Assembly: GCA_963707025.1 (NCBI GenBank)
Contig: CAVPOM010000006.1
Span: 96,001-160,000 of the forward strand
DNA length: 64,000 nucleotides
Source of the DNA: an uncultured Verrucomicrobiae bacterium
GTDB lineage: Bacteria; Verrucomicrobiota; Verrucomicrobiia; Limisphaerales; Palsa-1400
Direction: 5' to 3'
Shown here: positions 1,880-62,524 of the stretch, one piece after another
How the letters are laid out: each line of letters opens with the position of its first letter
Position numbering within the stretch: position 1 is the stretch's first letter
The notes under the pieces: model-generated
The model's database searches: none
Told to the model about the DNA's origin: nothing
What the model saw: the letters and a program-made list of their open reading frames with translations, nothing else
Made by a program: the position numbers and the translations under genes

Positions 1880-2260
1880 ATGGCCCGCAAAACCAGCAAA
1901 ATGGGTGGATTTACGGTGACTGAAATATGCATCGCGGTTGTGCTCATCGTTCTGTTGGTTGCGGTCGCGATTCCGAGGTTTGTTCGCAAACCCCCTATGC
2001 ACCCGGCGCATATGGCTTGCATCCCCGATCTCCGAATCATCAACGCTGCCAAGGGACAATGGGCGTTAGAATTTCAGAAAAAGAACACGGACACTCCTGG
2101 CGACAGCGACCTCCAGTCATACATAGGCCGCGGCTCTGCGGGCGAATTAACCGTTTGCCCGGTTGATCCCAAGCAAACGTTTGACACCAGTTATTCAGTC
2201 AACAACGTCGGCACCAAGCCGACCTGCAAAATCATGCCGACCCTGCACATTTTGCCCTGA
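1880..2260 (+). CDS. Type IV pilin-like protein
   Basis: Class III signal G|FTVTE plus hydrophobic helix; AC..DLRIINAAKGQWALE...CP...PTC pattern. Confidence 0.75.
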   Translation: MARKTSKMGGFTVTEICIAVVLIVLLVAVAIPRFVRKPPMHPAHMACIPDLRIINAAKGQWALEFQKKNTDTPGDSDLQSYIGRGSAGELTVCPVDPKQTFDTSYSVNNVGTKPTCKIMPTLHILP

Positions 2261-34787: not shown

Positions 34788-35711
34788 GTGACCGGCGTTT
34801 CCTTGGAGTGCATCAATGCGAGCACGCGCTATTGCGCGGTGTTGGGGCATCCGGTCGGCCATTCCGCCTCGCCCGCCATGCAGAACGCGGGCCTGGGGGC
34901 GCTGGGTCTCAATTGGCGCTATCTGGCTTTCGAGGTCCACCCCCGGGATTTGCGCGCCGCCCTGGCGGGGGCCAAAGCGATGAAGTGGATCGGCCTCAAC
35001 CTCACCGTTCCCCACAAGACCGCCGCGCTGGAAATGGTGGATGTCGTCCATGAAAAAGCCCGGCTCCCCGGCGCTGTCAACACGATTGTCTTTGAGACGC
35101 CCGGCCCCAAGGGCGATTGGATTCCGCTGGGCCAGGCGGCGGAGGGCGGGAGCAGCGAGGTGCGCAGCCACGGCTACAACACCGACGGGGATGGTTTGGC
35201 GCGCTCCCTCAAGGAAGATTTCCAATGGCCGGATTTGCGCGGGGCGTCGGTGCTTCTTTTGGGCGCGGGCGGAGCGGCTCGGGCCGCGGCCCTGCAACTG
35301 GCGGACGAAGGCATTGCCAGCCTGTTTCTGGTAAACCGAACCGGGGCCAAGGCCGAACAACTGGCCTGCGAACTGGGAGCCCGCTTCCCGGGAATCCACA
35401 TCAGCACGCGGTTGCCTGACGATCCGGTTGATTTGGTCCTCAACGCAACCTCCGTCGGCTTGAATGCAAACGACGCGCCGCCCTTGGCGGAAGACTGGCT
35501 GAAAGCGCGGCGTCCTCCCCGGGTGTATGACATGATCTATCGCCCCGCGGAAACGGCCTTGCTGCGCGCGGCCGGCCAGGCGGGCTGTCGGACGGCCAAC
35601 GGCCTGGGCATGTTGCTTTACCAGGGCGCGGCGGCGTTGGAATTGTGGTCGGGCCGGCCGGCGCCCGTGGCCGCGATGCGCGCCGCTTTGCAGCAAAACA
35701 TTTATGGCTGA
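34788..35711 (+). CDS. aroE: Shikimate dehydrogenase
   Basis: GHPVGHSASP, NLTVPHK, AVNT, NTDGDG, GAGGAARA, DMIYRP, GLGMLLYQG. Confidence 0.93.
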   Translation: MTGVSLECINASTRYCAVLGHPVGHSASPAMQNAGLGALGLNWRYLAFEVHPRDLRAALAGAKAMKWIGLNLTVPHKTAALEMVDVVHEKARLPGAVNTIVFETPGPKGDWIPLGQAAEGGSSEVRSHGYNTDGDGLARSLKEDFQWPDLRGASVLLLGAGGAARAAALQLADEGIASLFLVNRTGAKAEQLACELGARFPGIHISTRLPDDPVDLVLNATSVGLNANDAPPLAEDWLKARRPPRVYDMIYRPAETALLRAAGQAGCRTANGLGMLLYQGAAALELWSGRPAPVAAMRAALQQNIYG

Positions 35712-36816
35712 CCCCTCAATATGGAAGGCGTTGCCGTTTCATTTTTGGACGGTGACGGCGTTTGTCTTTGGCGCGGTGGTGGGAAGTTTCCTCAACGTCT
35801 GCATTCACCGGATGCCGCTGGGGGAAAGCATCATCAGCCCGCCGTCGCACTGTCCGCATTGCCGTTATTCCATCCCCTGGTATTTGAACATCCCTTTGTT
35901 CACCTGGTTGTGGCTGGGCGGACGATGCGCCCATTGCAAAGCGCCCATTTCCCCGCGTTATTTCGTGGTCGAACTGCTCACCGCCACGCTCTTCGCGGCT
36001 TGCTGGATAGAATTCGGCCGGATTTCCCCGCTGCTGCCGCTGGCTTATATGCTTCTCATCGCCGGCTTGATCGTTGGCTCTTTCATTGACCTGGCGCATC
36101 TGATCATTCCCGACCAAATCACTTACGGCGGCATGGTGGCCGGGCTGTTCTGTTCCTTTTTAGTGCCGCAGATGCACTTTGATTTTCCGGGGTTGACGCG
36201 TCTATCCGCTCCTGGAGCCGGCCTGGCGGACAGTTTCCTCGGCCTGGGCGTTGGGGCCGGCGTCATCTATGGCATCCTGCGCCTGGGAAAAATGTTTTTG
36301 GGCAGGCAAAAGGTGGATCTCCCGCCGGCCACCCGGATTCTCTTCACGGAAACGGGCGTGCAACTGCCCGGCGAGGAGATTGCCTACGAGGATTTGTTCT
36401 ATCGCAAGAGGGACGCGATCGAGTTGCAGGCCCGGCGCGTGGAACTGATTGACCGCTGCTATGCCAACAGCGCCGTGCAGTTGACCTCCGGCTGTTTGAA
36501 AATTGGCGGCGACACCTTCGATCCGGAGAAAGTCCTCTGCCTGGAAGTGGTGGCTGACCGCATCGTCCTGCCGCGCGAGGTGATGGGGCCGGCGGATGTG
36601 ACCTTTATGGCGGCCATCGGGGCGTTTTTGGGCTGGCCCGCGGTGTTTTTCTGCCTGGCCATCAGCTCGCTGCTCGGTTCCATTGTGGGCGGGACGGCGA
36701 TTGTTTTTAGAAAGCAGGACTGGTCCAGCCGGATTCCCTATGGTCCTTACATCGCGGTGGCGGCGGTGATCTGGATTTTTGGGGGATGCCAGTGGATGCG
36801 CGCGTTGTTGCCCTGA
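35704..36816 (+). CDS. pilD: Prepilin peptidase / N-methyltransferase
   Basis: GSFLNVCIHRMP, SHCPHC, CAHCK, ID...IPD, MGPADV, IPYGPYI. Confidence 0.92.
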   Translation: MADPSIWKALPFHFWTVTAFVFGAVVGSFLNVCIHRMPLGESIISPPSHCPHCRYSIPWYLNIPLFTWLWLGGRCAHCKAPISPRYFVVELLTATLFAACWIEFGRISPLLPLAYMLLIAGLIVGSFIDLAHLIIPDQITYGGMVAGLFCSFLVPQMHFDFPGLTRLSAPGAGLADSFLGLGVGAGVIYGILRLGKMFLGRQKVDLPPATRILFTETGVQLPGEEIAYEDLFYRKRDAIELQARRVELIDRCYANSAVQLTSGCLKIGGDTFDPEKVLCLEVVADRIVLPREVMGPADVTFMAAIGAFLGWPAVFFCLAISSLLGSIVGGTAIVFRKQDWSSRIPYGPYIAVAAVIWIFGGCQWMRALLP

Positions 36817-38574: not shown

Positions 38575-38593
38575 TTTTGGCCCCGGATTTGCT
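38575..38593 (+). promoter_or_regulatory. Sigma-54 promoter of the PilN-O-P-secretin operon
   Basis: TTTTGGCCCCGGATTTGCT (GG-N10-GC); 18/19 identical to the site upstream of pilC. Confidence 0.75.
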
Positions 38594-38764
38594 GAGGAAA
38601 GTTGATGCTTGCATTTCCTGGAACAAATCGCATATAACAGGACGTGCCACATTACGCATGGCTGAACGACTTATAGGAATGCCTGTTTTTGATGCACATT
38701 TGAGCGTCGCTGGCCCATTTAGGAACAAGGGGATGGGGAGCATTTTGCCGTGAACTAGAAAAAT

Positions 38765-39448
38765 ATGCCGATCCGAATCAACCTGATGGCCGAAGCGCAA
38801 GCCCTGGAAGAGGCGCGCCGGCGCAATCCCGTCAAATTGGGCGTCTGGATTGCCGGGTTCTGCGTGGCCGTGGTGGTGCTGTGGATCGCCAAGGTGCAAA
38901 TGGACATTTATTTCGCCAGGCTGGACTTGAGCAATCTCAATGCGCAGTGGAAGGCGGCGGAGGAAAAATACAACAACGTCACCAACGAAGAGGCCCGCAT
39001 CACTGCCATCAAGGGTAAAATCGCCGCCTTGGACCATCTCCAGACCAACCGGTTTCTGTGGGGCCCGGTCCTCAACGCGCTGCAGCAGACCGTGGTGGAC
39101 CAGATCCAGGTGACGCATATTTGGGCCCTGCAAACCTATGAGCGGGAGGGGCCCAAAACCTACGGCGCCGGCGCCACCATGAAGACGGTGCCGGGGTCGG
39201 CGAATTTTGAAAGAGTGAAGTTGTCCATCGCGGGGAAGGACTACAGCCCGACGGCGGAGGGCTACAAGAAGTACGAGGATACCCTGAACCATTTTGATTT
39301 CTTCGCCAAAAGGCTGGGCGGGCGCGACGGCTTCACCATTGACGGCGCGCCCGGCCCGAGATTCCCCGACGGGCCGGGTTCGTCCCGGGAATTCCGCACC
39401 TTCACCCTGACCAACCAGTTTCCGGACATCCGGCGCACCGACAAATGA
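38765..39448 (+). CDS. PilN-like pilus/T2SS assembly protein
   Basis: IRINLM motif, single TM helix, coiled coil, W..VLNAL. Confidence 0.75.
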   Translation: MPIRINLMAEAQALEEARRRNPVKLGVWIAGFCVAVVVLWIAKVQMDIYFARLDLSNLNAQWKAAEEKYNNVTNEEARITAIKGKIAALDHLQTNRFLWGPVLNALQQTVVDQIQVTHIWALQTYEREGPKTYGAGATMKTVPGSANFERVKLSIAGKDYSPTAEGYKKYEDTLNHFDFFAKRLGGRDGFTIDGAPGPRFPDGPGSSREFRTFTLTNQFPDIRRTDK

Positions 39449-40053
39449 CCAAGATCAACAAAACGCAACGAGACCAGTTGATCGCCGTGGCCCTGGGCAC
39501 GGCGGCGGTCATCGCCTGCTTGTGGTACCTGGTCGTCCTGGCGCAAAACAAACAACTGGCGGCGGCCGACGCCAGTTGCGCCAAGATGAAAGCCAAGCTC
39601 AAGGACGCCGCCGCCGAGGTGAGCAAGGCCGATAAGATCGGGCTGGATCTGACCAACAACCTGGAGGATCTCAGGCGGCGCGAAGTGGATTTCGCCCCCG
39701 AGCACGAGCCTTTCTCCTGGATGATGGAGAAAATGCGCAACTTCCAACTGCCGTCCAATGAACTGCACCGCTACAAGAGCGTTTCCATCGCCGACATCAA
39801 ACCGCCGGAAATCACCGACAAAGGAGGAGTGATCGCGGGCTTTCCCTACAAGTGGGCCAAGTTTCATATCACCGGCGAGGGCTACTACCACGATTTTGGG
39901 AAATTTATCGCGGACTTTGAGAATGCCTTTCCTTACTTTCGCATCCAGGACCTGGATATTTCCGTCCCCGGCATCCGCAAGGACCTGGATATGCTGTCTT
40001 ACAGCTTCAACATCGTCACGCCCCAGGTCCCGGGCGCGGCGGAAACAAAATGA
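39445..40053 (+). CDS. PilO/GspM-like protein
   Basis: Single TM helix, coiled coil, GYYHDFGKFIADFEN; ATGA-coupled to the previous gene. Confidence 0.75.
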   Translation: MTKINKTQRDQLIAVALGTAAVIACLWYLVVLAQNKQLAAADASCAKMKAKLKDAAAEVSKADKIGLDLTNNLEDLRRREVDFAPEHEPFSWMMEKMRNFQLPSNELHRYKSVSIADIKPPEITDKGGVIAGFPYKWAKFHITGEGYYHDFGKFIADFENAFPYFRIQDLDISVPGIRKDLDMLSYSFNIVTPQVPGAAETK

Positions 40054-40580
40054 AATTGCTGCGCACATGCCCCAAGAAAGCCGCGCTGGCCGCGGTGGCC
40101 GGAGTCTTGCTCGCCCTGGCCGTCCTGCCGGGATGCAACAAAGCGGCCAAGCCGGTCGCGGCTGCTCTCCCCAAGCCCGCCCCCGTCGCCAAAACCACGG
40201 GCGGGACGGGGACAAACCTCCCTGCGGAATTTGTCTCTGTATTTGACGACAGCCCGCCGCCAGGCAATACCGGCCGGGACCCGTTCAACCCCGACTCGAC
40301 CCTGCGGAATCCTGCCGCGGTGGGGCCGAAGATAACCGCCACCACGGTCGTGGCGGCTCCCCTGCTGAGGCTTTACAGCGTGACTGGATCACCGGGACGG
40401 TGGATGGTCGTCATCAACAACCAGATCATTGACTCTACAGAGATCAACAAGCCGATCCCTGTCCGTGTCCCGGGCGGCATCGTCACGGTAAGGGTCGTCG
40501 AAATCGGCGAGGATTATGCTAACGTCACGGTTGACGGCAGCCTCGCGACAAAGCGATTAACCATGGGCCAAAAAAAGTAA
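40050..40580 (+). CDS. PilP/GspC-like lipoprotein
   Basis: Lipobox LPGC, GRDPFNP, VVINNQI; position in the operon. Confidence 0.7.
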   Translation: MKLLRTCPKKAALAAVAGVLLALAVLPGCNKAAKPVAAALPKPAPVAKTTGGTGTNLPAEFVSVFDDSPPPGNTGRDPFNPDSTLRNPAAVGPKITATTVVAAPLLRLYSVTGSPGRWMVVINNQIIDSTEINKPIPVRVPGGIVTVRVVEIGEDYANVTVDGSLATKRLTMGQKK

Positions 40581-40639
40581 CCACCCTGCACGCCATGAAA
40601 ATCTCCACCACTCACCCCTATCAAGACGGGCCAATCCTT

Positions 40640-42458
40640 ATGAAAATCAAACTTCTCATGTTTCTCATCATCCTGGTTGCGGCGCCCGCGCTGATAAGTC
40701 TGGCGCAGACCAACCAGCCAGGACCACAGCCGCAGTCCAACACCGTCGTGACGACCACGACCAGCAATGCACCCCCGATTGAGGCCCCTCTGCCAACGCT
40801 CCCGGTCCAGGGCTTCCCCACCCTGGGCGGCACCAACACAAATATGCCCGGGACCACCACCCCACCCGCCAGCAACACCACCCCGCCCGCCGCCATTGTT
40901 GTTGCCAGCGGCGACGAGCCCGAAGATATGACCTTTGACGATCTGCCGTTGCCCGACGCCGTGCGGCAGTTGGCCCTTCTGGCGGGGCTGAACATTCAGT
41001 TTGATCACCGGCTGGAAAATCCGGTGGACCCGGTGACCCACCTTCCCGTGGCGCTCCCGACGGTGAAGGAAAAATGGAAGAACCTGACCCCGATGCAAGC
41101 GTTGCGCGCCTTATTGGACAAGTATGACTGGCAGATGAAGACCAACCCCACCACTCCGGTCGTCATCATCAGCGCCAGAGAAGCCAACGCGGTCGAACCC
41201 CAGGTGACGGAACGTCATCCTCCTGGGCTACAGCGACCCGACCAACATCATGGCCGAAGTCAGCAAGGCGTTGCCGATGCTCGTCACCATCATTCCAAAC
41301 GTCCGCACTCACCAGGTCATCGTCCGGACAACGGAGCGAATGATGCCCGTCGTCAAGGAGCTCATCGCCCGGCTGGACAGCCAGACAGGGCAAATCTTGA
41401 TCGAAGCCAAGATCATCGAAACCCTCAAGGACATCAATACGGCCAAGGGGATTGATTGGACCGGCACACTCCAATCCCAGCATCTTAGTTTCGGCAATGG
41501 CCTGACCGGTGGAACCACCACCGCCACCACCCAATCCGGCAACAACCTGGCGGGCGCCTCCAGCACCACGACGGCGCCGGGGGGCCGCACTTCCACCACG
41601 GGAAGCCCCCTCACCAGCATCATCAACAACAGCAGCAGTTTCGTCACCACCACCGTGGGCAACGCCTCCCAGGCGGGAGGCATGACGGTCAACACCGCCA
41701 ATGGCTTCAACCCCAAGACCGCCTTCCTCAATGCGGATGGCGTCTCCGCCATCCTCGAGTTTCTCAATACCGATGCCGACACCAAGTCCATCGCCCTGCC
41801 GCGCACCGTCTCGCTCGACGGCCAGAAAACCACCTTGGCCGTCATTCAAAACATTCCTATTTTCCAACAACAGCAGAGCGCCCCGGCGGCCGGCGCCGTC
41901 GCGGGTCTGGCCACGGTGCTGCCCAATTATGAAGTCAAGGTCGGCGAGACGGTCCTCAACGAAGTCGGCTTCAAGCTCACCGTGACCCCCCGCATTGCCG
42001 GAGCGTCCAACGTGCTCATCACCGTCCAGCCGGAAATCTCCAGCGTGGACACCAAGATCGCGACCGACACGTTGAACGGCCAAGTGGAAACCTCCCCCAT
42101 CTTCGACCGGCGCCTGATTACCACCGTGGCGGCGGTGCCGAGCGGGTACACCCTGGTTCTGGGCGGCTTGGATAACGACGTGATGGCCAAGACCTATACC
42201 AAGGTGCCGGGGTTGGGCGACATACCGGGCATCGGCGCGTTGTTCCGCAGCAACACCAAGGACCATACGCGGGATACCATCCTGATTTTTGTCACCCCGA
42301 CCATCATTCGGGAGTCCGACTTCCAGCCCACCGTCACCGATTTCCTGCACAGCAAGAATGAGTCTATGCCGTCCCGCTACAACCCGGTCTGGGACCGCGG
42401 CGCGCCCTATGATTGGACCCAGCCAAAAGCGCCCGTTGAGCCGTACTATAAGCCCTGA
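40640..42458 (+). CDS. Secretin (PilQ/GspD family), single-base frameshift at about 41210
   Basis: QILIEAKIIE, GIDW, KLTVTPRI, TLVLGGL, KVPGLGDIPGIGALFR, IFVTPTII; removing one G joins ORFs 40595 and 41250. Confidence 0.88.
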
Positions 42459-42471
42459 ACACCCTCAAAAT

Positions 42472-45400
42472 ATGCAACTGGTTTTAAGAAACTGCGCGGG
42501 GGGAAAGGGGCGCCTGGCCGGGTGGGCTGCCCTTGTCGCCTGCCTGGCCGTGCTCGCCTGTGCTCCGGCACTCCGGGCGCAAATTGATTACGAGGAAACC
42601 AACGTCACCGTCACCACCATTGGCGGCGGACCGCCGCCGGGCAATCTTTGCGCCAGCCCGGCTGGGTTTGTGGATGGCAACACTCTGGAGGCATCCCAAT
42701 TTGACGGCCCCGTGGACGCGGCCCTGAATTCCCAGGGAACTCTCTTCATCGCCGACTACACCAATAACGCCATCCGCATCGTCACCTCCGTCGGGGACGC
42801 CGTCAACAGCATTACCGAAACGAAGTCCTTTTTCACCAACCTCCCCGGGGTGGTGGGCCTGGCCGTGGACGCGGCCGACAACCTGTATGTGCTGACGCAG
42901 GGCGACAAAATGCTGAGAAAATACAATTATTCGTACAATTTGCTTTTCAGCGAAGTCCTGCCGTTTACGCCTGCGGCGCTGGCGGTTTCCCTGGACTCGG
43001 CCACCAATATATTTGTCGCTTTCACTAATGGGGTGGTGCTGGAGCTGGCACAGAACGGGGTGAGTATTGTGAAAACAACCACCATCGTCGCCGGCGGCTC
43101 GAAACTGAAGCCCGGTGGCATCGCCTGGCGCAGCGATGGGGCTTTGGCCGTGAGCGACCTGGCCAATAACGCCATTTACCTCCTGGTCAACACCAGCAAC
43201 GCCATTCCCTTGCTCTACGCCGGCGGCGGCGCCAATGGTTCGACGGCGGGTTGGGTGGACGGCGTTTTCGGCTTTGCGGAGTTCAATGGACCGTGCGGCC
43301 TGGCCTGGTCGCCCGACGGCCAGTTGGTGGTGGCGGACCGTTTGAACAACGCGGTGCGGCGGATTAATGCCGCGGCCACCACCAGCACCATTTACGGGGT
43401 CAGTTCCAATCTTTGGACGGGGACCTTCTGTCATGCCACGCCCAATGCGATTTTCGCGGGCTGGGTGGATGGCGGTTTCGGCGAGGATCAAACCAACGCC
43501 ACCGGACGCGCCCCAGCCAGCGTGGTCATTGCCTCGTCCAGCACCATCTATGTCACCGAACTGTATTATGATCTGCTGCGCGAGGTGAAGGGAGTCACCT
43601 TCGGGAGCGGCACCAACGCCGTCAGCGCGACCAACGTGGTCATCCCGCCGCCGGTGTTCAGCCCCAATTCCGGATACTTCCCGGAATGCCAGACCATCTT
43701 GGTGACCAGTTTAGCCCCGTCGGTTTATTACACCACCGACGGAACGACCCCCACCACCAACAGCCCGACGGTGCAGATCACCAACATCAGCGTCGTCAAC
43801 GACCAGGTCATTTATGAAGGCTCCTTCCAGTGGTGCAATTCCCTCCTGGATTTGAGTTCCTTGCGCCTCATCACCGCCAGCGGCACCAACGTCAGCGTGG
43901 TCACCAACGGGGTCAGCAGCCTTGTCAATCAAATCGGCTTCCCGTTTTCCCGTGTCGCCGGCAGCGGTTCCACCGCGGTCATTCCCGTGGTGGTCAATTT
44001 GCAAAGCAACGCCACGCTGGCTTCGCTGCAATTCGACCTGGAAATCATTCCGACGACGGCCGCGACGCCGCCCATTGCGGCGGTGACCCTCCTGCCCATT
44101 TCCACCAACGATTTCCTCCAGTTGGTCAGGCAGGCCCCTGGCAATGCGCCGGTCAATTACCAAAGCTTCCCTTACTTTCCGGGGAGCAACGGGCTGGGTT
44201 TGGCCATCCTGGCGCCGGCGGTAAATTCCGGATTGAACGTGCATAATTTCGCGGTGTTGACGTTGTTGGAAGTTCCCATTCCCGCAACGGCGGTCGAAGG
44301 GCAAAGTTACACGCTCAATGTCCGTGACGCTTCCGGCACCTCCAATGCGGCCCAAGGCACCGTGCTGTTCGCCTCCCTGCCCATCCAGACCCTGACCATT
44401 TCCAACTACCAGTATTTTGCGGGGGATTCCTCGCCCTCCAGCGGATACGAGGCGGGCGAATTTGGCGACGGCGCCCTCAACAACAGCGATGTCAACAATG
44501 CGCTCCTCGCCTCCCTGGGCATCCATGTTCCCTTCACCTTCACCGATGCTTACAGCGCGATGGATGTGTATCCTGAAACGGCCACGGAAATAGGGGACGG
44601 CTTGATCACCTATCTGGATTGGCAGCATATTTTGCTGCGCTCACTCGGGGTCGAGACCAACAACTGGGTCCGCTTCTGGACCAACGGCGGCTTTCTCTCG
44701 CACAAGCGCATCGCCTGGTCGCCCGGCCAGACCGTCCCCGTCGGCGTTTCCCCAAATCTTGCGCTGGCCACCGCCGGGACCCGCGCCGTGGCCACTCCCC
44801 AGCCGGGGGTGGCTTGGTTGCGGCAGGCTACCATCCACGCCGGAACCATTGCCCAATTGACTCCTGGCAATACCTATTCCATCCCGGTCTATGTCAATGT
44901 CCTGCCGGGCTGCAGCTTGTCCGGCCTGCAATTCCGCGCCATGCTCGTGCCCAACGGCGCGGCCCCCGCGCCGGGCCAGATTCAATTTAACGCCGTGCCC
45001 GGCCTGCCCCCTCCTTACGCCTCCGCCGCTGGACTCTCGCCCAACGACATCATATACGCCGTGTCGCTCTCCCAGCCTTTCACGCCGGCGCTCCAGGGCA
45101 GCAACGCCCTCGGCTCCATTTCGTTCCAAGTCCCGCCTGGCGCGCAAGCCGGGCAATCCTACACCTTGCGTTTTTCGGGGGTGGACGGGTCGCCCGACTT
45201 CGATACGGCCTATCAATTGGAAAGCGTGCCCGGCTCGGCCTGGGTGAAATCCGCCGCGCTCAGCCCGCCGCAAACCACCTCCGACGAGTGGCGGATGTAC
45301 TTCTTCGGCAGCCTGACCAACGCCCTGGCGCAGGACAATGCGGACCCGGACGGGGACGGCATGGCCAACTGGCAGGAATATCTGGCCGGGACCAATCCCA

Positions 45401-45645
45401 CCAACGCCCTCTCCGCGCTGCAATTCGCCGGGGCCGGGTTGGTCCCCGGCGGCGCGCCCAACATCAATTTGAGCTGGCAGACGGCGCCGGGCAGGCTCTA
45501 CGTCCTGGAATCCAGCCCGGTGGCCGGGGGAAACAACTGGACGCCTGTCAACACCAATCTGGGTGATGGCAACGCCTTCCAGGTTGTCCTGACCAACCAC
45601 ACGGGGACCGCGCGCTTCTATCGCCTCCAACTACTCCAGCCATGA
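42472..45645 (+). CDS. Large exported protein: NHL repeats, Fn3-associated, cohesin-like x2, dockerin-like, TSP3-like, FYR C-terminal domain
   Basis: Signal peptide; LFIADYTNNAIR; YYTTDGTTPT; GDGALNNSD and GDGLITYLD; DPDGDGMANWQEYLAGTNP; RFYRL. Confidence 0.8.
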   Translation: MQLVLRNCAGGKGRLAGWAALVACLAVLACAPALRAQIDYEETNVTVTTIGGGPPPGNLCASPAGFVDGNTLEASQFDGPVDAALNSQGTLFIADYTNNAIRIVTSVGDAVNSITETKSFFTNLPGVVGLAVDAADNLYVLTQGDKMLRKYNYSYNLLFSEVLPFTPAALAVSLDSATNIFVAFTNGVVLELAQNGVSIVKTTTIVAGGSKLKPGGIAWRSDGALAVSDLANNAIYLLVNTSNAIPLLYAGGGANGSTAGWVDGVFGFAEFNGPCGLAWSPDGQLVVADRLNNAVRRINAAATTSTIYGVSSNLWTGTFCHATPNAIFAGWVDGGFGEDQTNATGRAPASVVIASSSTIYVTELYYDLLREVKGVTFGSGTNAVSATNVVIPPPVFSPNSGYFPECQTILVTSLAPSVYYTTDGTTPTTNSPTVQITNISVVNDQVIYEGSFQWCNSLLDLSSLRLITASGTNVSVVTNGVSSLVNQIGFPFSRVAGSGSTAVIPVVVNLQSNATLASLQFDLEIIPTTAATPPIAAVTLLPISTNDFLQLVRQAPGNAPVNYQSFPYFPGSNGLGLAILAPAVNSGLNVHNFAVLTLLEVPIPATAVEGQSYTLNVRDASGTSNAAQGTVLFASLPIQTLTISNYQYFAGDSSPSSGYEAGEFGDGALNNSDVNNALLASLGIHVPFTFTDAYSAMDVYPETATEIGDGLITYLDWQHILLRSLGVETNNWVRFWTNGGFLSHKRIAWSPGQTVPVGVSPNLALATAGTRAVATPQPGVAWLRQATIHAGTIAQLTPGNTYSIPVYVNVLPGCSLSGLQFRAMLVPNGAAPAPGQIQFNAVPGLPPPYASAAGLSPNDIIYAVSLSQPFTPALQGSNALGSISFQVPPGAQAGQSYTLRFSGVDGSPDFDTAYQLESVPGSAWVKSAALSPPQTTSDEWRMYFFGSLTNALAQDNADPDGDGMANWQEYLAGTNPTNALSALQFAGAGLVPGGAPNINLSWQTAPGRLYVLESSPVAGGNNWTPVNTNLGDGNAFQVVLTNHTGTARFYRLQLLQP

Positions 45646-48600
45646 CCACGACACAAAAATCCAACCGGCCCTCCGGCGGCCTGAAGCGGGCCGGCGGAAT
45701 ATTGGCCGCGATGCTTTTCGCCGCCGCCCTGCACGGCCAGCAACAAATCGCCACCGCCATTGCCACGGGCCTGAATCAGCCGGGCTTCGTGACCAGCGAC
45801 CCGGACGACAACATTTACCTGACCAACACTGTCAACAATCGCATCGTCGAGTTCATTCCCCTGACCAATGGCGTGTTCACCCTGGCGGGGTCGGGCACGG
45901 CCCAGTCCGGATTGAGCAACAGCGTTTTCGGCGATCAGGCTCTTTTTTCCTATCCTTTGGGCATTGTCTATGATCCCTTCCGCGGCGGATTGGTGGTGGT
46001 GGATCAGGTCAATCAAGTGTTGCGGCTGGTCACTCTGGGCGGCGCGGTCTCCACCCTGGCCGGCATCCCCTCCACCCTGGCCAACCCGGACGGCGGCGCC
46101 AACGACGGCACGGCGGCCACGGCCCAGTTCAGCGACCCGGTCGGCATCGCGACCAACGGCGTCGGCAACCTGTATATCGCCGACACGGGCAACAACGCCA
46201 TCCGCCGCGTCAACAGCACCAACGGCGTGACCACCGTGCAGGTGATCAACTACACCTTCTACGGCCCGACGGCCGTGGCGTTGGACACCAATAACAACCT
46301 TTGGGTGGCCGACACCAGGAACGACACCATTTGCGTCATCAGCAATATCAGTGTCATCGGCAAGCAATCCGCCTACGTCATCGCCGGCACGCTCGGCCAC
46401 ACCGGCACCAACGATGCGGCCAACGCGTCCAGCGCCTTGTTCAACCAGCCGGGCGGGTTGCTCTGGGACCCGAATGGAGCCGGTTTGCTCATCAGCGACA
46501 CCGGCAACAACACCGTCCGGCGGCTCTATCCCAACCTGGCGCAGGGCGGCTGGTCCGTGCAAACCGTGGCCGGCCTTCCGGGCGTGGCGGGAAAGACGGA
46601 CGGCGTGATCTCCATCGCCGAATTGAGTTCTCCGCTTGGCCTGACGGTGGATGCCGTCAATAACGGCTATTACATCGTGGACATGAAGAACAATGAGTTG
46701 CGCCGTTATCAAACCGGCCCGCCCCAGCCGCCGGTGCAGAACCCGCAAATCGGGTTGGTCACCTTTCCCATCAATCCCGCGACCGGGCAACCGTCCTCCC
46801 TGTTCACCGCGCTGCCCGAGGGCGGCATTTTCAACACCAACAACATTATCGCCATTTTCAATACGGACTCCGACCCGAACGTGCAGACCTATTACCTGGT
46901 GACCAACACGCCGCCCAACCAGTTTGTCAACCCGCCGATTCCCGGCACCAATTCGCTCTTCGCCCCCAATTATCCGGGAAACGGCTCGCCGGAAACCGTG
47001 CAGGACACGACCACCTTGTTCCAACCGCGGCCTTACGAGGTGACGCTCTATGCGATCAGCCTGGCCCGGGGCCGCGCCCCCAGCCAGGTGGTCAGCGCCA
47101 ATTTTTCCTATATCACGGCCCCGCCGGTCATCGGCGGCAACAATGGCGCCACGGTGCAATTGACGGATCTGACCGTGCCTTCGACCATGTGGTACACTTT
47201 GAACAGCAACGCGCCGGTGGTCAACGGGGCCGGCAGCTTTGGGCCGCTCAGCTCTCCCGCCACGATTTCCTTCGTGGTCAACAGCAACGTCACTCTCACG
47301 GTGCAGGCCTATTCCCCCGGCTTTGCTCCCAGCGCCCTGGTCTCCCAAACATTTGCGGCCTCCAATTTCGTCACCGATCAAATGACCTTCGGCTTTGCCT
47401 CGGGTGAAGCTTCCAGCCAGTTCCTGGCAGCCGCCGGGCATCGTTTTTACGTGCCCGTGACCCTGAGCCTCCTGCCGGCCTCCACCATGTATTCCCTGCA
47501 GTTCAACGTCACCGTCACCAACCTGGCCGGCGCTCCGCCGGTCGGGACGACTTACACGTTCGACTCCATGCTCGTCCAGCCCGTCGAAATCAACGGGCAA
47601 TTATTCTATGAAACGATTCCCACAGAGATGTTCACCAACGGCGGGTTTCAAGACCTGCGCTTCACCAATTCCAGCCTCAACCTGCTGGGCGTCGGCTGGC
47701 TGGAAATTCCGCCGGAGACCAATTTATACAACACTGTGGGACAGACCTTGATCACCTATTCGCTGGCGCACGAAACCGTCTTCAATAGTTCGTCCGGCAG
47801 CGTGATCGTTGGCGCCTATTCCTTTGACATTCCCGGCGGCGCCGTCACCAACCAAGCCTATCAAATCCAAATCGGCCGCCCCTCCGCCGATGGAGACGGT
47901 TTCGCCCAGAACGTTCTCATCCAGGCTCCGACCAATGGCTCCCTTGGGGTGGGGGCCATCAATTCCATCAAGAATGTCACGGTGAGTGTCATCCCCTACT
48001 TGGTGGGCGATGTGGCCCCCTTCCGCTGGTTCAACGCCGGTGATTTTGGCGACGGCAATCTCCTCAACAATGACGTTTTGGAAGTATTCCGCGCCGCCGT
48101 TTACCAACTGGAGAGAACTTTGCCCGGCAGCGATTTCTTTGACGCCTTGGATTCTTCCGATGGTTCCTTCAACGATTATTACACCGAGACCGATGCGCAG
48201 ATTAACAACATTTTATTCGGCGACGGGAAATTGGACGTGACCGATGTCTATGTGACCTTCCGCCGCTCCTTGGATCCTTCTTTAAATTGGATCCAGCGAT
48301 ACTGGTCCAATAATGGCGCCGGTGGTTCAGCCTTGTTCGCGCAGACCGTCCCCAACGTGCTTAATCCAGCCAATCCATCCGTGGCCAAGTCGCCGGCGGT
48401 GCGCGTCCCTCAAGTGTCCACCCCGACGCCGCATTTCATCGCGGTCGGGGCGGATGTTGTCCAGGCGGGCGGCAACCAAACTGTGTCGGTGCCCGTCCGT
48501 GTTCTGGCGGCGGATCCCCTTCCCATCCGCGTGCTGATGCTGAACGTGGATGTCATCCCGCTCGACGGCTCTCCCGCCGTGACCAACGCCGTCGCTTTCT

Positions 48601-49238
48601 CCCCCGCCGCCGTTTTGGGGACGCCTGCCATGTCCATGTCGCAAGGCGCCAATAACTACGCCGCCGCCTGGCTTAATTCCTCCAACTCCGGCGTCAGCGG
48701 CACCAATGTCATCGGCACGGTCACCGTCACTTTGCCGCCCGGTGTCACCGCCAATTCGTCTTACCTGGTGCATTTCGAGCATTTCTCCGCCTCGCCCAAC
48801 GGCCTGGCTCTGTTCCAATCCACCATCACGGACGGCTTGATTACGGTGGGCAATCGCACTGGTTCGAGCTGGGGCGATGGCATCCCGGACACCTGGCGGC
48901 TGCTTTGTTTCGGCACCGTTTCCAACCTTCTCTCCGCCGCGAACCTCGATCCCGATGGCGACGGCGCATCCAACTGGCAGGAGTACGTGGCCGGCACCAA
49001 TCCGATGGATCCCGCCTCCGTGCTGCGGTTGACGCCGCTGGCGCCCGCTCCCAACTTCACCGTGCAATGGCCTTCCGTGCCGGGCAAAACTTATATGGTG
49101 CAGAGTTCGGTTTCCCTGTTCTCCACCAACTGGTCCGTCACTGCCAGCAACCTGCCTGGCACCGGCCAAATGATGCAGCTCTCCGACACCAACACCCCCG
49201 CCCCGCCGGCCAGATTCTACCGCGTCCAGGTGCAATAA
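45642..49238 (+). CDS. Paralogous large exported NHL/cohesin-like/dockerin-like/TSP3/FYR protein
   Basis: LYIADTGNNAIRR; GDGNLLNND and GDGKLDVTD; DPDGDGASNWQEYVAGTNP; RFYRV; ATGA-coupled. Confidence 0.8.
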   Translation: MTTTQKSNRPSGGLKRAGGILAAMLFAAALHGQQQIATAIATGLNQPGFVTSDPDDNIYLTNTVNNRIVEFIPLTNGVFTLAGSGTAQSGLSNSVFGDQALFSYPLGIVYDPFRGGLVVVDQVNQVLRLVTLGGAVSTLAGIPSTLANPDGGANDGTAATAQFSDPVGIATNGVGNLYIADTGNNAIRRVNSTNGVTTVQVINYTFYGPTAVALDTNNNLWVADTRNDTICVISNISVIGKQSAYVIAGTLGHTGTNDAANASSALFNQPGGLLWDPNGAGLLISDTGNNTVRRLYPNLAQGGWSVQTVAGLPGVAGKTDGVISIAELSSPLGLTVDAVNNGYYIVDMKNNELRRYQTGPPQPPVQNPQIGLVTFPINPATGQPSSLFTALPEGGIFNTNNIIAIFNTDSDPNVQTYYLVTNTPPNQFVNPPIPGTNSLFAPNYPGNGSPETVQDTTTLFQPRPYEVTLYAISLARGRAPSQVVSANFSYITAPPVIGGNNGATVQLTDLTVPSTMWYTLNSNAPVVNGAGSFGPLSSPATISFVVNSNVTLTVQAYSPGFAPSALVSQTFAASNFVTDQMTFGFASGEASSQFLAAAGHRFYVPVTLSLLPASTMYSLQFNVTVTNLAGAPPVGTTYTFDSMLVQPVEINGQLFYETIPTEMFTNGGFQDLRFTNSSLNLLGVGWLEIPPETNLYNTVGQTLITYSLAHETVFNSSSGSVIVGAYSFDIPGGAVTNQAYQIQIGRPSADGDGFAQNVLIQAPTNGSLGVGAINSIKNVTVSVIPYLVGDVAPFRWFNAGDFGDGNLLNNDVLEVFRAAVYQLERTLPGSDFFDALDSSDGSFNDYYTETDAQINNILFGDGKLDVTDVYVTFRRSLDPSLNWIQRYWSNNGAGGSALFAQTVPNVLNPANPSVAKSPAVRVPQVSTPTPHFIAVGADVVQAGGNQTVSVPVRVLAADPLPIRVLMLNVDVIPLDGSPAVTNAVAFSPAAVLGTPAMSMSQGANNYAAAWLNSSNSGVSGTNVIGTVTVTLPPGVTANSSYLVHFEHFSASPNGLALFQSTITDGLITVGNRTGSSWGDGIPDTWRLLCFGTVSNLLSAANLDPDGDGASNWQEYVAGTNPMDPASVLRLTPLAPAPNFTVQWPSVPGKTYMVQSSVSLFSTNWSVTASNLPGTGQMMQLSDTNTPAPPARFYRVQVQ

Positions 49239-49300: not shown

Positions 49301-50764
49301 CTACTGGATGGCCAGTTCCTGCTTGATTTTGAATTTTTCCACGCGCTTGCGCAAGGTGGCCCGCGTGATGCCCAGAAGTTTGGCGGCCTGGACCTGGTTG
49401 CCTTTGGTTTCCAACAGGGCTTGGATGATGAGTTCCCGTTCCACCGCGGGCAGAACTTTCAGTTGGCCCTCCTGGCGCGCCCATTCAAACAAGGTTCGCC
49501 CCACCGCCGCCCAGTCCAACAGGCCGCCTCCCCCCGCCGGAGCGGCCGCCTTCTCGGGCGGGGCCGGGCCGGGCTTGTCCAGTCCGGCCGCCGGGAGGCT
49601 GGAGATTTCCACCGGGAGGTCGCCCGGCAAAATAACATCGCCCTTGGCCATGACGGTGGCCCGCTGGACCACGTTCTCCAGTTCCCGCACGTTGCCCGGC
49701 CAGTGGAACCGCTCCAGCAGTTCGGCCGCCGCCGGCAGGATGGACTTGGGGGCGCGCCCCTGGGCCTGGGCGAACTTCTTTAAAAAATAGTTGACAAGCA
49801 GGGGAATGTCGTCCCGCCGCTCGCGCAGCGGGGGAATGGGCACGCGCACGACGTTGAGGCGGTAAAACAAGTCCTCGCGGAATTCGCGGGCGGCCACGGC
49901 CTGTTCCAGCGGCTTGTGCGTGGCGGCGATGACCCGCACGTCCACTTGGATGGATTGGTTGCCGCCGACCCGCTCAAAGGCGCCGGACTGGAGGACGCGC
50001 AGGATTTTGGCCTGGGTGGAGAGGGTCATGTCCCCGATCTCGTCCAGGAAAATGGTGCCGTGGTTGCACTGCTCGAATTTGCCGATGCGCTGGGCGGCGG
50101 CGCCGGTAAAAGCGCCTTTTTCGTGGCCGAACAATTCGCTTTCCAGCAAGTTTTCCGGGATGGCGGCGCAGTTGATGGCCAGGAAAGTCTGGGCGTTGCG
50201 CTGGCTGTGATGATAAATGGCGCGCGACACCAGTTCCTTGCCCGTGCCGCTTTCCCCGGTGATCAGCGCGGTGGCGTCGCTCCCGGCCAGTTGCCCGATG
50301 ATTTTGAAGACGTTCTGCATCCTTTCGCTGCGCCCGATGATCCCCAAATCGTAATCCTCCGATTCGAGCAACGGCTGGTAGGAAACGACCTGGCGCATGT
50401 CGCGGGCGGCCTTGAGGGCGTCCAGGACAACCTGCTTGAGCCGGGGCACATCGAAGGGTTTGAGCAGATAATCGTAAGCGCCCAACTTCATCGCCTCGAT
50501 GGCGGTCTGGGTGGTGCCGTAGGCCGTCATCATGATGACCATTTGTTTGGCGTCCATCTGGCGGAGGCGGCGGAGGGTTTCCAGGCCGCTCATCCCGCCC
50601 ATGCGCACGTCCATGATGACCAGGTCTGGTTTGAGGCGGGGGATGAGCTTCAACCCCTCCTCCCCGCTGTCCGCCGTGGTCAACTGGATTTCCGGCTGGT
50701 CAAAAATGCGGCGGAACGAGTATTGCACGTCCGCTTCGTCATCAATTAAAAGGAGCTTGTCCAT
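49301..50764 (-). CDS. Sigma-54-dependent response regulator (NtrC family)
   Basis: REC domain, GESGTGKE, GAFTGA, REDLFYRLNV, WPGNVREL, Fis-type HTH. Confidence 0.95.
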   Translation of the reverse strand: MDKLLLIDDEADVQYSFRRIFDQPEIQLTTADSGEEGLKLIPRLKPDLVIMDVRMGGMSGLETLRRLRQMDAKQMVIMMTAYGTTQTAIEAMKLGAYDYLLKPFDVPRLKQVVLDALKAARDMRQVVSYQPLLESEDYDLGIIGRSERMQNVFKIIGQLAGSDATALITGESGTGKELVSRAIYHHSQRNAQTFLAINCAAIPENLLESELFGHEKGAFTGAAAQRIGKFEQCNHGTIFLDEIGDMTLSTQAKILRVLQSGAFERVGGNQSIQVDVRVIAATHKPLEQAVAAREFREDLFYRLNVVRVPIPPLRERRDDIPLLVNYFLKKFAQAQGRAPKSILPAAAELLERFHWPGNVRELENVVQRATVMAKGDVILPGDLPVEISSLPAAGLDKPGPAPPEKAAAPAGGGGLLDWAAVGRTLFEWARQEGQLKVLPAVERELIIQALLETKGNQVQAAKLLGITRATLRKRVEKFKIKQELAIQ

Positions 50765-50796
50765 GTTCACGCGCCCGCAGCATAACCCAAAGTAAT

Positions 50797-51290
50797 GCAA
50801 AATGAAGAATGAAAATTGCAGAAGGAAAAGGGCGCACGGAGTGCTGGGGTGGCGGAGCAAAGTCTAAAGGCTGAAGGCTGAAGGCTAAAAGTTGGGACAA
50901 GGATGTGTGGAGTGATGGAGTAATGGGCCCGAAACTTCAAAAAAACACCTTGATTCACCTTGATTGGGCTTGATTGAGCTTGCTTGGAAAAGCCTGATTT
51001 AGTGTGTAAATTGTTCATGGACAGGCATTTGGATTGAATTGCCGCCAAAATGCGCAAAAGCCGCAAAAGAAGGCATTGTTGCAGGCGGATGAGAACGGAA
51101 AATAACACGATTAGACACGAACGAGCACCATTGGGACGGGGATGAATTGCCGCGAGAGGGCGCAAAAGAACGCAAAAGGAACGACCCCCTCCTACGAGGC
51201 GAAGACCATAGGGCTCCTTTTTCTTCGCAGGCCGTTTTACTTGGATTGACTTGGATGGATTTGGATTGGGCCGGATTGGATTCACCTGAC
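50797..51290. repeat. Patch of short degenerate tandem repeats
   Basis: aaggctg x3, cttgatt 10-mers, ttgga-like 5-mers, two aattgccgc...gcgcaaaag...cgcaaaag units. Confidence 0.8.
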
Positions 51291-51954: not shown

Positions 51955-52283
51955 ACGCGCAACACCGTTTGTGGTGGTGATTGCCGGAAACCGCCTAAAA
52001 ATGAACCAAACTATGCGTGAAATCTTTCCCCTTCCCTTTCCTCAATATGCGATTATGCGGGACCCCTCTGGCTTCTTGCGGTTTGAGGCGGGGGATGAGC
52101 TTCAACCCCTCCTCCCCGCTGTCCGCCGTGGTCAACTGGATTTCCGGCTGGTCAAAAATGCGGCGGAACGAGTATTGCACATCCGCTTCGTCATCAATTA
52201 AAAGGAGCTTTTCCATGTTCACGCGCCCGCAGCATAACCGGGTGCAAGGCAAAATGAAGAATGAAAAATAACACGGTTGGGCC

Positions 52284-53681: not shown

Positions 53682-54143
53682 TCAGGATCTCGCGGACAGA
53701 AGCTGTCCCGCGTGCATCACCACGCGCTCGCAAATGCCGTCGAAGACGGGCTTTTGTTCGCGGCACCAGGCGAAAATCTCGGCTGCCCGCGCGCCGGCAT
53801 AGTCATGAGCTATCATGTTGCGCACGTCCTTCATTTCCCGCAATTCCTCTCCGCGAGCCACCACCCCGCGCTTTTCGGCGCGATGGATAACATCCAGGAG
53901 CGAGCCTTGGGGATGCAATTCCATCCGGTCCAAACCGCGGAGAACCTTGTTGACGAGCAAATCCACCGACCGGGCAAAACGGCCGGTGAACGCCTCGGCG
54001 CTTTCCAATTGCTGCTCGCTCGCGCCTTGCAAAGTAGCCGGCAATCCGGCGATCTGCCGGCAGGAAAAGTCCAGATGCCGGCGGGCGCTGGCCAATTCCG
54101 CCAGGGCCTGTTCGAGCAGGCTGCGTGCCTGATCTGGTTTCAT
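53682..54143 (-). CDS. HEPN-domain protein (putative toxin)
   Basis: EAFTGRFAR and the RNMIAHDY (RX4H) motif. Confidence 0.85.
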   Translation of the reverse strand: MKPDQARSLLEQALAELASARRHLDFSCRQIAGLPATLQGASEQQLESAEAFTGRFARSVDLLVNKVLRGLDRMELHPQGSLLDVIHRAEKRGVVARGEELREMKDVRNMIAHDYAGARAAEIFAWCREQKPVFDGICERVVMHAGQLLSARS

Positions 54144-54427
54144 AATTTGACTCCCGTTTCCCGCGCCGTGGCCGCCAGCGGCTCGTTCATTTGATCGCGG
54201 CGCCGCACCACCAAGTCCAGTTGTTGCCAGCCGATGCGATCCAGAATCCGGGTGCGCAACCGCAGCACCTCGCGGAAACCCAATGTTTCCGAGATGACCA
54301 GCAGGTCAACATCACCACCGCGCGCCGTGTCATCCACACGCGAACCGTAAAGATAGACCTCGGCCTTGGGGTCCAGCCGCCCAATCTCCTCGCGAATCGC
54401 GGTAATCTCATTCGCCGTCAGTCTCAT
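54140..54427 (-). CDS. Minimal nucleotidyltransferase (MNT antitoxin)
   Basis: VYLYGSRVDDTARGGDVDLLV. Confidence 0.9.
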   Translation of the reverse strand: MRLTANEITAIREEIGRLDPKAEVYLYGSRVDDTARGGDVDLLVISETLGFREVLRLRTRILDRIGWQQLDLVVRRRDQMNEPLAATARETGVKL

Positions 54428-61266: not shown

Positions 61267-62478
61267 TCAGTGCTTGCCGGAGACCAGGTCGCTCAACTTG
61301 AAAATGGGCAGGAACATGCAGATGACGATGCCGCCCACCACCACCCCCAAAAACACGATGAGCAACGGTTCGATCAAGGAGGTCAATCCGTCCAGCGTCG
61401 TTTTGATTTCGTCATCCAGAAAATCGGCCACCCGTTCCAGCATGTTGTCAATCTTGCCCGTTTGTTCTCCGGCCGTGAGCATGCGGATGATCATGACCGG
61501 GAAAACCGGATGCTTGGCCAGGGCGGTGGAAATGCCTTCGCCCCGTTCAATGTCCACCGCGGCCGTTTTCAGCGCGTTTTCCATCACGATGTTGCCGACG
61601 GTGTTTTGCACGATGGTCAGCACCTCCAGAATCGGCACGCCGCTGCGCACCAGCGAGGCCATGGTCCGGGCGAAACGCGCCAGGCAGATCTTATGGGCAA
61701 TGACGCCGAAAATGGGCAGCTTGATCCGTCTGGCGTCCCAAAAGGCGCGCCCCATCGGCGTGCTGATGTAATAGAACCAGCCGCCCACAATCCCGATCAT
61801 CCCCACAAAGAGCAAAATCAGGTGTTCCTTCATGAAGGTGCTGACCGTGATGAGGAACAGGGTCGGGCCCGGCAGCTTGCCGCCGAAGCCGGAAAAAACA
61901 TCCTTGAACACCGGCACCACCACCACCATGAGGAAAATAGTGATGCTAATGGCCACGATCGTCACCGCCACCGGATACATCAGGGAAGACTTCACCTTCT
62001 TGCGCAGGCGGGCGGTGTTTTCCAGGTAGGTGGCCAGGCGGCTGAGAATTTCCGCCAGCAAGCCGCCCTTTTCCCCCGCGCCCACCATGGAATAATAAAG
62101 CCGGTTGAACACCTTGGGATGCTTCTGCAATGCCTCCGAAAAACTGTCGCCCCCTTCCACCCGCGTCGTCACGTCCTTGATGACGTCCCGCATCACTTTA
62201 TGGTCCGTCTGGTCCGCCAGGGCCTGGAGGGACTGGACCATGGCCAGACCGGCGTCAATCATGGTGGACAATTGCCGGGTGAAAATGACCAGATCGGCCA
62301 AAGCCACCTTGCCGCCGCCGGTGCGGCCCTTTTTCCCCAGCTTTTCGCTGATGGAAACCACCAGCATATTGCGGTTTAAAAGCGCGGCCACCGCGTTGGC
62401 CTCGGTGGACGCGTCAATCGAAGCGCGGATTTCCCGGCCGCTGACTGAATCGCGGGCAACATAGCTAAAAGATGGCAT
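61267..62478 (-). CDS. pilC: Type IV pilus / T2SS inner-membrane platform protein (PilC/GspF)
   Basis: FTRQLSTMIDAG, AGEKGG, SLMYP, GEQTGKID, LIEP, MFLPIF. Confidence 0.93.
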   Translation of the reverse strand: MPSFSYVARDSVSGREIRASIDASTEANAVAALLNRNMLVVSISEKLGKKGRTGGGKVALADLVIFTRQLSTMIDAGLAMVQSLQALADQTDHKVMRDVIKDVTTRVEGGDSFSEALQKHPKVFNRLYYSMVGAGEKGGLLAEILSRLATYLENTARLRKKVKSSLMYPVAVTIVAISITIFLMVVVVPVFKDVFSGFGGKLPGPTLFLITVSTFMKEHLILLFVGMIGIVGGWFYYISTPMGRAFWDARRIKLPIFGVIAHKICLARFARTMASLVRSGVPILEVLTIVQNTVGNIVMENALKTAAVDIERGEGISTALAKHPVFPVMIIRMLTAGEQTGKIDNMLERVADFLDDEIKTTLDGLTSLIEPLLIVFLGVVVGGIVICMFLPIFKLSDLVSGKH

Positions 62479-62505: not shown

Positions 62506-62524
62506 AGCAACTCCGGGGCCAAAA
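62506..62524 (-). promoter_or_regulatory. Sigma-54 promoter of pilC
   Basis: Minus strand TTTTGGCCCCGGAGTTGCT (GG-N10-GC), 27 nt upstream of the ATG. Confidence 0.8.

Follow-up and report, generated by a model that had tools for sequence, protein, structure and literature searches.

We analysed a 64,000-nucleotide (nt) stretch of DNA, hereafter the window, from contig CAVPOM010000006.1 of an uncultured Verrucomicrobiae bacterium in the order Limisphaerales. Limisphaerales are common, mostly uncultured Verrucomicrobiota, and their surface biology has been little studied. The window holds a cluster of six genes on one strand: pilN, pilO, pilP, a secretin gene and the genes for two giant paralogous proteins, BIG1 and BIG2. 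The cluster is laid out as follows, with protein lengths in amino acids (aa):

38578..38593, + strand: sigma-54 (-24/-12)-like site, TGGCCCCGGATTTGCT, 172 nt 5′ of pilN and identical in two congeners.
38765..39448, + strand: pilN, 227 aa; the only PDB match of its family profile is Myxococcus xanthus PilN (3JC8, E 3e-4), and in other families the gene lies right behind pilM.
39445..40053, + strand: pilO, 202 aa; the top PDB match of its family profile is M. xanthus PilO (E 8e-4), and there is a weak T2SSM match.
40050..40580, + strand: pilP, encoding a lipoprotein of 176 aa with a lipobox Cys and an RDPF motif, both conserved in the alignment; top PDB match M. xanthus PilP (E 6e-3).
40640..42458, + strand: PilQ-like secretin with signal, Pro/Thr linker, N0, N3, secretin domain and short tail; matches to Pfam Secretin (E 3e-34) and Secretin_N; +1 frameshift near 41206-41212.
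41460..41723, + strand: predicted outer-lip loop of the secretin, 88 aa, rich in Thr, Ser and Gly, with a P-G-G hairpin tip; flanked by the G-x-x-W and FLN motifs, it aligns with the GspD lip region and co-varies with the giant genes.
42472..45645, + strand: BIG1, 1057 aa; signal peptide, NHL propeller (~37-385), CHB_HEX_C/Fn3-like part, cohesin-like (497-645), dockerin-like (646-745) and cohesin-fold (775-925) domains, TSP3-type Ca motif and a 70-aa fibronectin type III (FnIII)-like tail.
45642..49238, + strand: BIG2, 1198 aa, built as BIG1; this is the type retained where there is a single giant gene.

An earlier note on this DNA had described six same-strand genes joined by three ATGA overlaps and by gaps of 13-59 nt, with two exported paralogs of more than 1000 aa right behind the secretin, and recomputation agrees with it on both counts. 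The overlaps join pilN to pilO, pilO to pilP and BIG1 to BIG2, while 59 nt separate pilP from the ATG at 40640 and 13 nt separate the secretin from BIG1; both paralogs begin with a signal-peptide-like segment, as read from the sequence. A sigma-70 scan of the cluster returned 0 promoter-like sites, and its interior holds no convincing terminator. The sigma-54 motif that the note placed ahead of the genes is present, but it is not significant alone, as the window contains 6 one-mismatch matches against 3.1 expected and 12 of 100 shuffles reach 6. Similar sites precede pilN in 10 of the 21 relatives' loci that lack pilM at this place, compared with 3 of 21 coding controls. They also stand 5′ of the window pilC, of two pilA-like genes and, in relatives, of the operon for the minor pilins; rpoN is present in the genome. 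The note's further statement that no PilM/GspL-like gene stands in front of pilN is borne out by the gene calls and domain scan of the window, which place an IF-2B/MtnA-family gene there instead, 248 nt away. A gene of ~210 aa that frequently lies 5′ of pilN in this family was considered as a degenerate pilM and ruled out; it encodes a membrane protein.

The pilus machine itself is of a known kind. Each of the pilN, pilO and pilP family profiles has as its top solved structure the corresponding protein of the M. xanthus type IVa pilus (T4aP). According to the accessible part of a review by Pelicic (PMC10191384), separate PilM and PilN, PilP, and PilT mark a T4aP as opposed to a type II secretion system (T2SS). 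The cluster departs from a T2SS in that PilM and PilN are separate, with no GspL fusion, PilP is a lipoprotein, and the secretin has a single N3 and neither N1 nor N2. Among the parts of a T4aP, the genome encodes a stand-alone PilM with PilN/PilO, the PilP lipoprotein, PilB and PilC, major and minor pilins, and a prepilin peptidase. As the earlier note had supposed, PilC, PilM and the ATPase come from outside the cluster. PilC is encoded farther along the window; pilM, on contig C3, encodes 353 aa, has no pilN behind it, scores 104 bits with its top NCBIfam model TIGR01175 (cut-off 133) and exceeds the cut-off of Pfam PilM_2; and the ATPase PilB, on C5, has TIGR02538 as its top match at 652.5 bits (cut-off 675.7). 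PilT/PilU is found above cut-off on C4, with several more PilT-sized matches in the genome. There are eight PilA-like genes of 125 aa, two of them with sigma-54-like sites, PilV/W-like and PilX/Y1-like genes lie beside pilM, and PilD is in the window.

The distribution of these genes across the order explains the missing pilM. Among 61 relatives in the order, pilN is present in 54 and the C3 pilM in 50, and outside the family the identical seven genomes lack both. Every other-family genome with pilN (23 of 23) carries the pilM ortholog directly 5′ of it, an arrangement seen in 0 of the 26 same-family genomes holding the two genes. In 80 further loci, taken from records whose titles name Verrucomicrobiota and Limisphaerales, pilM is upstream in 55 and not in 22, with three too short; these 22 group on a single branch of a quick pilN tree (SH-aLRT 99). 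Locus searches here and below relied on pilN and secretin alignments, as the cohesin-dockerin alignment gave no usable pattern. Of 20 loci within the family, 17 place pilM behind minor pilins and a PilX/PilY1-like gene and none has it ahead of pilN, and three other-family loci (L197, L204, L233) carry an unbroken pilW-pilX/Y1-pilM-N-O-P-Q series, one of them with a giant gene as well. The five genomes G031, G037, G038, G047 and G051, all of which lack pilN and pilM, also show PilC, PilB and close PilA homologs either weakly or not at all. A search of 200 phylum genomes did not recover the system beyond the order, giving only five weak pilM matches. Judged by these profiles, gene orders and trees, the start of the six-gene cluster is the PilN-O-P-Q half of the Limisphaerales T4aP operon, and pilM was split from it once in this family. 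Because its ‘PilM-less’ state is a single operon split, this is not a stripped channel. From their co-occurrence and ancestral order, we predict that the dispersed parts (on C3, C5 and the window) build one retractable pilus, and that PilB of C5 and PilC pair with this machine. The region around the displaced pilM (G000:C3:329679-334730, L071) reads pilV-like, pilW-like, pilX/PilY1-like (with a weak HpsA match, and frameshifted here), a 200-aa gene and pilM, with a sigma-54-like site 5′ of it in relatives.

What sets this operon apart is the pair of giant genes. These occur in 41 of the 61 relatives, in none of the seven without pilN and in 12 of the 23 other-family genomes having pilN; the association of giant gene and pilN gives a Fisher p of 0.024, kin not being independent. 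In an even sample of 151 genomes of the order, the secretin is found in 108, giant genes in 59 and both in 57, and wherever both are present (57/57) a giant gene lies on the same strand no more than 4 kb downstream of the secretin. This synteny survey upholds the tie between giant genes and secretin that the earlier note had drawn from a single locus. The remaining two genomes with giant genes are fragmented assemblies. Since 57 of 59 giant-gene genomes have the secretin, the giant genes need this machine; since 51 of the 108 secretin genomes lack giant genes, the machine does without them about half the time. The idea of an accessory, dedicated channel thus has to be given up: the operon is the order-wide T4aP operon, intact in the 23 other-family genomes, and commonly stands without giant genes.

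The secretin itself differs with giant-gene status. In the alignment, the difference falls in the stretch between G-[IV]-D-W and FLN-A-D-G, which aligns with the GspD segment past the first outer-barrel strand; from this alignment and the literature we infer that the stretch is an extracellular lip. In the accessible text of one preprint (bioRxiv 10.1101/2021.07.20.453082), T2SS lips have 51-60 residues, and those of cap-gated secretins ~80. Secretins accompanied by giant genes have lips of 71-94 aa with 38% Thr/Ser and a P-[GS]-G hairpin tip, a motif at least 90% conserved; those without have a median of 64.5 aa (44-89) and 19% Thr/Ser. A rule requiring at least 71 aa and GNG is satisfied by 49 of 49 loci with giant genes and by 0 of 24 without, the rule having been drawn after the data were viewed and L192 and L210 left out as their loop pattern was not matched. 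A control segment has equal median length in both groups (128 vs 128). A tree built minus the loop has 7 changes of partner state, at least five of them forced, and all 7 tree contrasts point in the same direction (sign test p 0.016). We then applied the rule to new loci, 63 of 99 being scored (in 2 the loop was not found, 11 repeated a loop already counted and 23 offered too little DNA downstream); 61 were correct, with 30 rule-positive loci having a giant gene, 31 rule-negative loci having none, and two mismatches. The cohesin-dockerin part was directly identified for 21 of the 31 positives, 11 times within the locus and 10 times by genome search; the others were recognized by an N-terminal match. 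Within a single genus, G322 has giant genes and a 73-aa lip, and G046, without giant genes, has that lip minus the hairpin tip. The co-variation is the best evidence for, and suggests, a joint function of the giant proteins and the outer rim of the pore.

BIG1 and BIG2 share one order of parts: signal peptide, NHL propeller, CHB_HEX_C/Fn3-like stalk, conserved base and tail. A structural model of BIG1 residues 497-1057 (mean predicted local distance difference test score, pLDDT, 88; predicted template-modelling score 0.83) shows a cohesin fold in the base, which has Foldseek matches to cohesins at E ~1e-7. The second cohesin-like domain superimposes on a cohesin with Z 14.1 and a root-mean-square deviation of 2.7 over 135 residues, and cohesin matches overall have Z 12-14; the first is related to the second by profile (E 2e-7 to 2e-8). 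Between the two lies a conserved pair of G-D-G/F-G-D-G motifs, each with a helix behind it, in a dockerin-like arrangement. Profiles of the cohesin-like and dockerin-like parts find no carriers besides BIG1 and BIG2 in this genome, which is 88% complete; the dockerin-tagged enzymes that define a cellulosome are accordingly not found within that coverage. In relatives, the head consists of one to several propellers, and the stalk of 1-8 Fn3-like repeats, fn3 and Ig domains, on a constant base (25 of 26 giant proteins scanned gave domain matches). The family comprises 668 clusters at E 1e-10 and is annotated only as hypothetical or lactonase-like. Single-gene loci are of BIG2 type; where there are several genes, 1-3 or more of BIG1 type precede a single BIG2, apart from two cases showing BIG1 only.

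Both proteins end in a tail that is far more widespread than the operon. It comprises the last 70 residues (W...Y-x-L-Q-x-S-x-x-L...W...F-Y-R; one window copy at 45427-45642) and has 110 matches in the genome, 100 of them terminal, against 0 on reversed sequences. The carriers, ~100 mostly large proteins, have N-terminal hydrophobic segments in 55% of cases vs 27%, by a crude test. None of 41 tails has a Pfam or NCBIfam match; the model is a six-strand FnIII-like sandwich (pLDDT 87) whose best Z, 7.4, is to a generic FnIII. The tail occurs in 60 of the 61 relatives, G038 being the sole genome without it, and at 33-56 copies in G031, G037, G047 and G051, all of which lack this pilus. It is spread phylum-wide, in 86 of 201 genomes, where the system's pilM is not found. 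Cargo of the type IX secretion system carries an Ig-like C-terminal tail as its export tag, and the similar position makes the present tail a candidate export or anchoring tag. We considered the window secretin as a general exporter of tail proteins and rejected it, as the tail persists without the pilus and throughout the phylum. If the tail is an export tag, its retention without this pilus means that another machine reads it, which weakens the case for dedicated export. In a locus where the giant genes have been lost (L058, G046:C11), an unrelated 1551-aa RCC1/Ig protein bearing the shared tail is encoded directly 3′ of the secretin.

We lean towards a model in which the giant proteins dock on the elongated secretin lip and ring the pilus exit with propeller-tipped stalks that serve in adhesion or surface sensing; we judge it somewhat probable. 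Docking on the pore rim is likely because the pore keeps its long outer loop almost only together with giant proteins, and we infer that the co-variation reflects direct binding of the two. In such a scheme, sigma-54-driven expression would yield PilN/O/P/Q and the giant proteins together, and PilM, PilB, PilC and pilins from other loci would complete the T4aP. The giant proteins would cross the inner membrane via Sec and then reach the surface, where their conserved base, not the propeller, would bind the Thr-rich lip hairpins. BIG2 would dock first and BIG1-type paralogs would join through cohesin-dockerin contacts, possibly cross-linking neighbours, so that variable propeller heads on stalks would be held around the pilus exit. 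The giant proteins may leave either through this secretin or by the route of the ~100 proteins that share their tail. A fuller version, in which a crown of stalked propeller adhesins on the secretin lip is locked by cohesin-dockerin contacts and delivered by a Verrucomicrobiota-wide route reading the 70-residue tag on ~100 proteins per genome, is rather doubtful. The earlier note had proposed export or display of the two proteins: display on the pore gains indirect support from the lip co-variation, and the export part fares worse, as the retention of the tail without this pilus suggests a possible other route.

The giant proteins could instead be cargo of the pilus, exported through the secretin and then released or held at the tip in the manner of TcpF or CofJ, with the long lip acting as a cap gate tuned to them. 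They are encoded in the same operon as the secretin, giant genes without the system occur only in the two fragmented genomes, and TcpF and CofJ are described, in the accessible text of PMC10120004, as operon-encoded exoproteins of type IV pili. The lips here, at 71-103 residues, can likewise be set beside the ~80 of cap-gated secretins rather than the 51-60 of those without a cap gate (preprint cited above). However, the tail is common to ~100 proteins, persists at high copy number without this pilus and extends well beyond the order. The giant proteins, at 110-200 kDa and with several domains, are also far larger than TcpF, and on balance we consider the cargo explanation unlikely. TcpF measures ~35 kDa. 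Quite improbable, in our estimate, is a surface layer or mesh in which the giant proteins polymerize by cohesin-dockerin contacts, the lip has grown long enough to traverse the layer and co-transcription serves to match supply. Such polymerization would fit the two cohesin-like and one dockerin-like units of each protein, the variable stalk length, and the absence of any other dockerin or cohesin carrier from the genome, because of which the giant proteins are expected to pair only with each other. Yet a cell-wide coat need not adjoin the secretin in every genome that has both, a low-copy pilus operon would be an odd place for an abundant coat protein, and the conservation of P-[GS]-G is more like that of a binding site than of a spacer. 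A periplasmic or pore-plugging accessory that stabilizes or seals the secretin, as do TsaP, PilY1 and Slk-type plugs, has the precedent of such secretin-bound accessories, and a signal peptide alone proves only passage to the periplasm; but the co-varying part is the outer lip rather than N0/N3, and the head-and-stalk build is adhesin-like with Ca-binding motifs, which leaves this explanation very improbable.

Several observations weigh against a crown docked on the lip of a pilus secretin. G298 has a 102-aa lip without giant genes, and L311 has giant genes with GNN instead of GNG. The genomes are related, so that the large lip counts overstate independence and only ~5-7 changes are independent. 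The co-variation could be indirect, with a longer lip needed to cross a giant-protein surface layer or to pass cargo. The dockerin assignment is based on EF-hand-like G-D-G motifs accompanied by helices and on an Atlas lead, and neither Pfam Dockerin_1 nor Cohesin has a match in the genome. The secretin scores higher with T2SS GspD than with PilQ (157 vs 121 bits, both below cut-off); its architecture, N0 and N3 only, fits the PilQ type, and the hidden Markov model scores do not assign it to a class. Finally, the secretin gene (1819 nt) occupies two frames in the assembly, not one open frame, and mapping of public DNA reads listed no piece spanning 41200-41220 and no indel row. By comparison with three congeners, the gene has one surplus base near 41206-41212, and the relatives' secretins are intact at 515-690 aa. 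Frame changes affect 17 of 127 genes compared with relatives, including the PilX/Y1-like gene on contig C3, and some of these breaks may be the relatives'. As the assembly is error-prone and the gene is intact in relatives, the break is most likely an assembly artefact.

The operon invites comparison with several known systems. It resembles the T4aP pilMNOPQ operons of M. xanthus (3JC8), Pseudomonas and Neisseria in its stand-alone actin-like PilM, PilN, PilO, lipoprotein PilP and N0+N3 secretin, with PilB, PilC, PilD, PilT-family and major and minor pilin genes elsewhere. It differs in that pilM is detached and, in this family, joined to the minor-pilin operon, in that no AMIN domains are seen and the divergent sequences fall below curated cut-offs, and in the 1-5 giant cohesin-containing genes behind a secretin with a co-varying lip. 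The Akkermansia Amuc_1098-1102 locus, from the same phylum, also has a PilM/N-O-P-secretin block; that type, however, is represented in this genome by a separate operon on C14, with a fused PilM-N scoring 470 bits (NF045709) and a 1012-aa secretin scoring 319 bits (NF042912). The window proteins, with no fused PilM-N or ~900-aa secretin, reach 21 and 77-78 bits with these models. TcpF and CofJ share with the giant proteins their place in a pilus operon encoding an exported-type protein, but belong to type IVb pili; here the pilus parts are of type IVa, and the much larger, modular proteins are linked by co-variation to the secretin lip, where cargo of the TcpF/CofJ type has an N-terminal export signal bound by a tip pilin and needs the pilus for its export. 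The base recalls cellulosomal pairs (6KGC, 5NRK, 1OHZ) and non-cellulosomal cohesins (2XDH, 2VO8) in its cohesin fold and its two EF-hand-like D-G motifs with helices; unlike these, it combines both modules in one chain, at ~12-15% identity and below Pfam thresholds. Vibrio-type cap-gated T2SS secretins likewise have a long extracellular lip, whereas the lip here is a Thr-rich extension of a pilus-type secretin whose gain or loss goes with that of a partner gene. The tip adhesins PilY1/PilC are also large, exported, T4aP-linked beta-propeller proteins; here a separate PilX/PilY1-like gene is present on C3, and the giants carry their NHL propeller at the N-terminus and stay linked to the secretin. 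In Omnitrophota, the giant genes next to T2SS-like loci encode different, far larger proteins, as far as the accessible text describes them (10.1101/2023.11.21.568195).

A search of the literature, with subscription journals and supplements mostly outside its coverage, found no description of the operon, the giant proteins, the lip co-variation or the tail; within that literature, the giant partners, the co-variation and the shared tail are new. The secretin partners described in the Pelicic review and otherwise known do their work in the periplasm, in the membrane or at the pilus tip. A partner seated on the outer lip, if true, would represent a novel means of arming a pilus pore, and would put cohesin-dockerin modules to a new use that involves no enzymes. 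The lip offers a precise handle, a single hairpin of ~15-25 residues. The tail, which matches no family in Pfam or NCBIfam, may serve to export or anchor a large share of the phylum's exoproteins.

Other pilus-related features of the window are these:

49301..50860, - strand: sigma-54 activator of the NtrC family, convergent with the cluster; a conserved neighbour, found after the operon in 14 of 20 loci of this family and 4 loci of other families, and a candidate regulator of it.
35704..36816, + strand: prepilin peptidase PilD (Pfam A24_N_bact and Peptidase_A24); besides this genome, a single congener locus has it close to the operon.
61270..62475, - strand: PilC platform protein; top NCBIfam match T4P PilC, below cut-off; absent where pilN is absent; a near-identical sigma-54-like site lies at 62506-62521.
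1883..2257, + strand: PilA-like major pilin, 125 aa, one of the eight such paralogs.

Genome-wide, secretins number five clear cases and PilM-like matches three; they make up two or three T2SS-like clusters (those on C16 and C6 separate from the window operon), the Amuc_1098-1101-type operon on C14, the window operon and the pilM of C3. A weak secretin match lies in a 1,442-aa frame on G000:C18, and in two relatives a secretin domain is found within open frames of ~4,100 aa (L237, G031:C16; L242, G037:C162). About 10 kb 3′ of the Amuc_1098-1101-type operon (G000:C14:122120-154804; L072, L073) lie huge exported genes, one of 3416 aa and one broken into 489, 1559 and 284 aa, with variants of the shared tail at their ends. 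In some other families, a second copy encodes a fused PilM-PilN and PilO with no secretin (L149, L151, L147, L148, L150), two of these directly behind the minor-pilin cluster. On G000:C4:239218-253504 (L139), a pilB-pilT-pilB-pilC block is followed by four pilin-like genes and one for a 1321-aa protein; it is probably the motor of another secretin system of the genome. Prepilin-type N-termini number ~70 genome-wide, of which ~45 belong to ‘FTLIELLVVIAII’ proteins of 250-340 aa, scattered singly.

In the rest of the window, a truncated, nearly exact repeat of the NtrC-like gene's first ~45 codons lies at 51995-52471 (- strand) and is either a duplication remnant or an assembly artefact. An exported, NlpC/P60 peptidase-like protein with SH3-like parts is encoded at 52284-53513 (- strand), as judged by its translation. 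Translations likewise point to two small toxin-antitoxin-like gene pairs at 30449-31146 and 53682-54427 (both - strand), one PIN-like and the other a nucleotidyltransferase with a HEPN-like partner.

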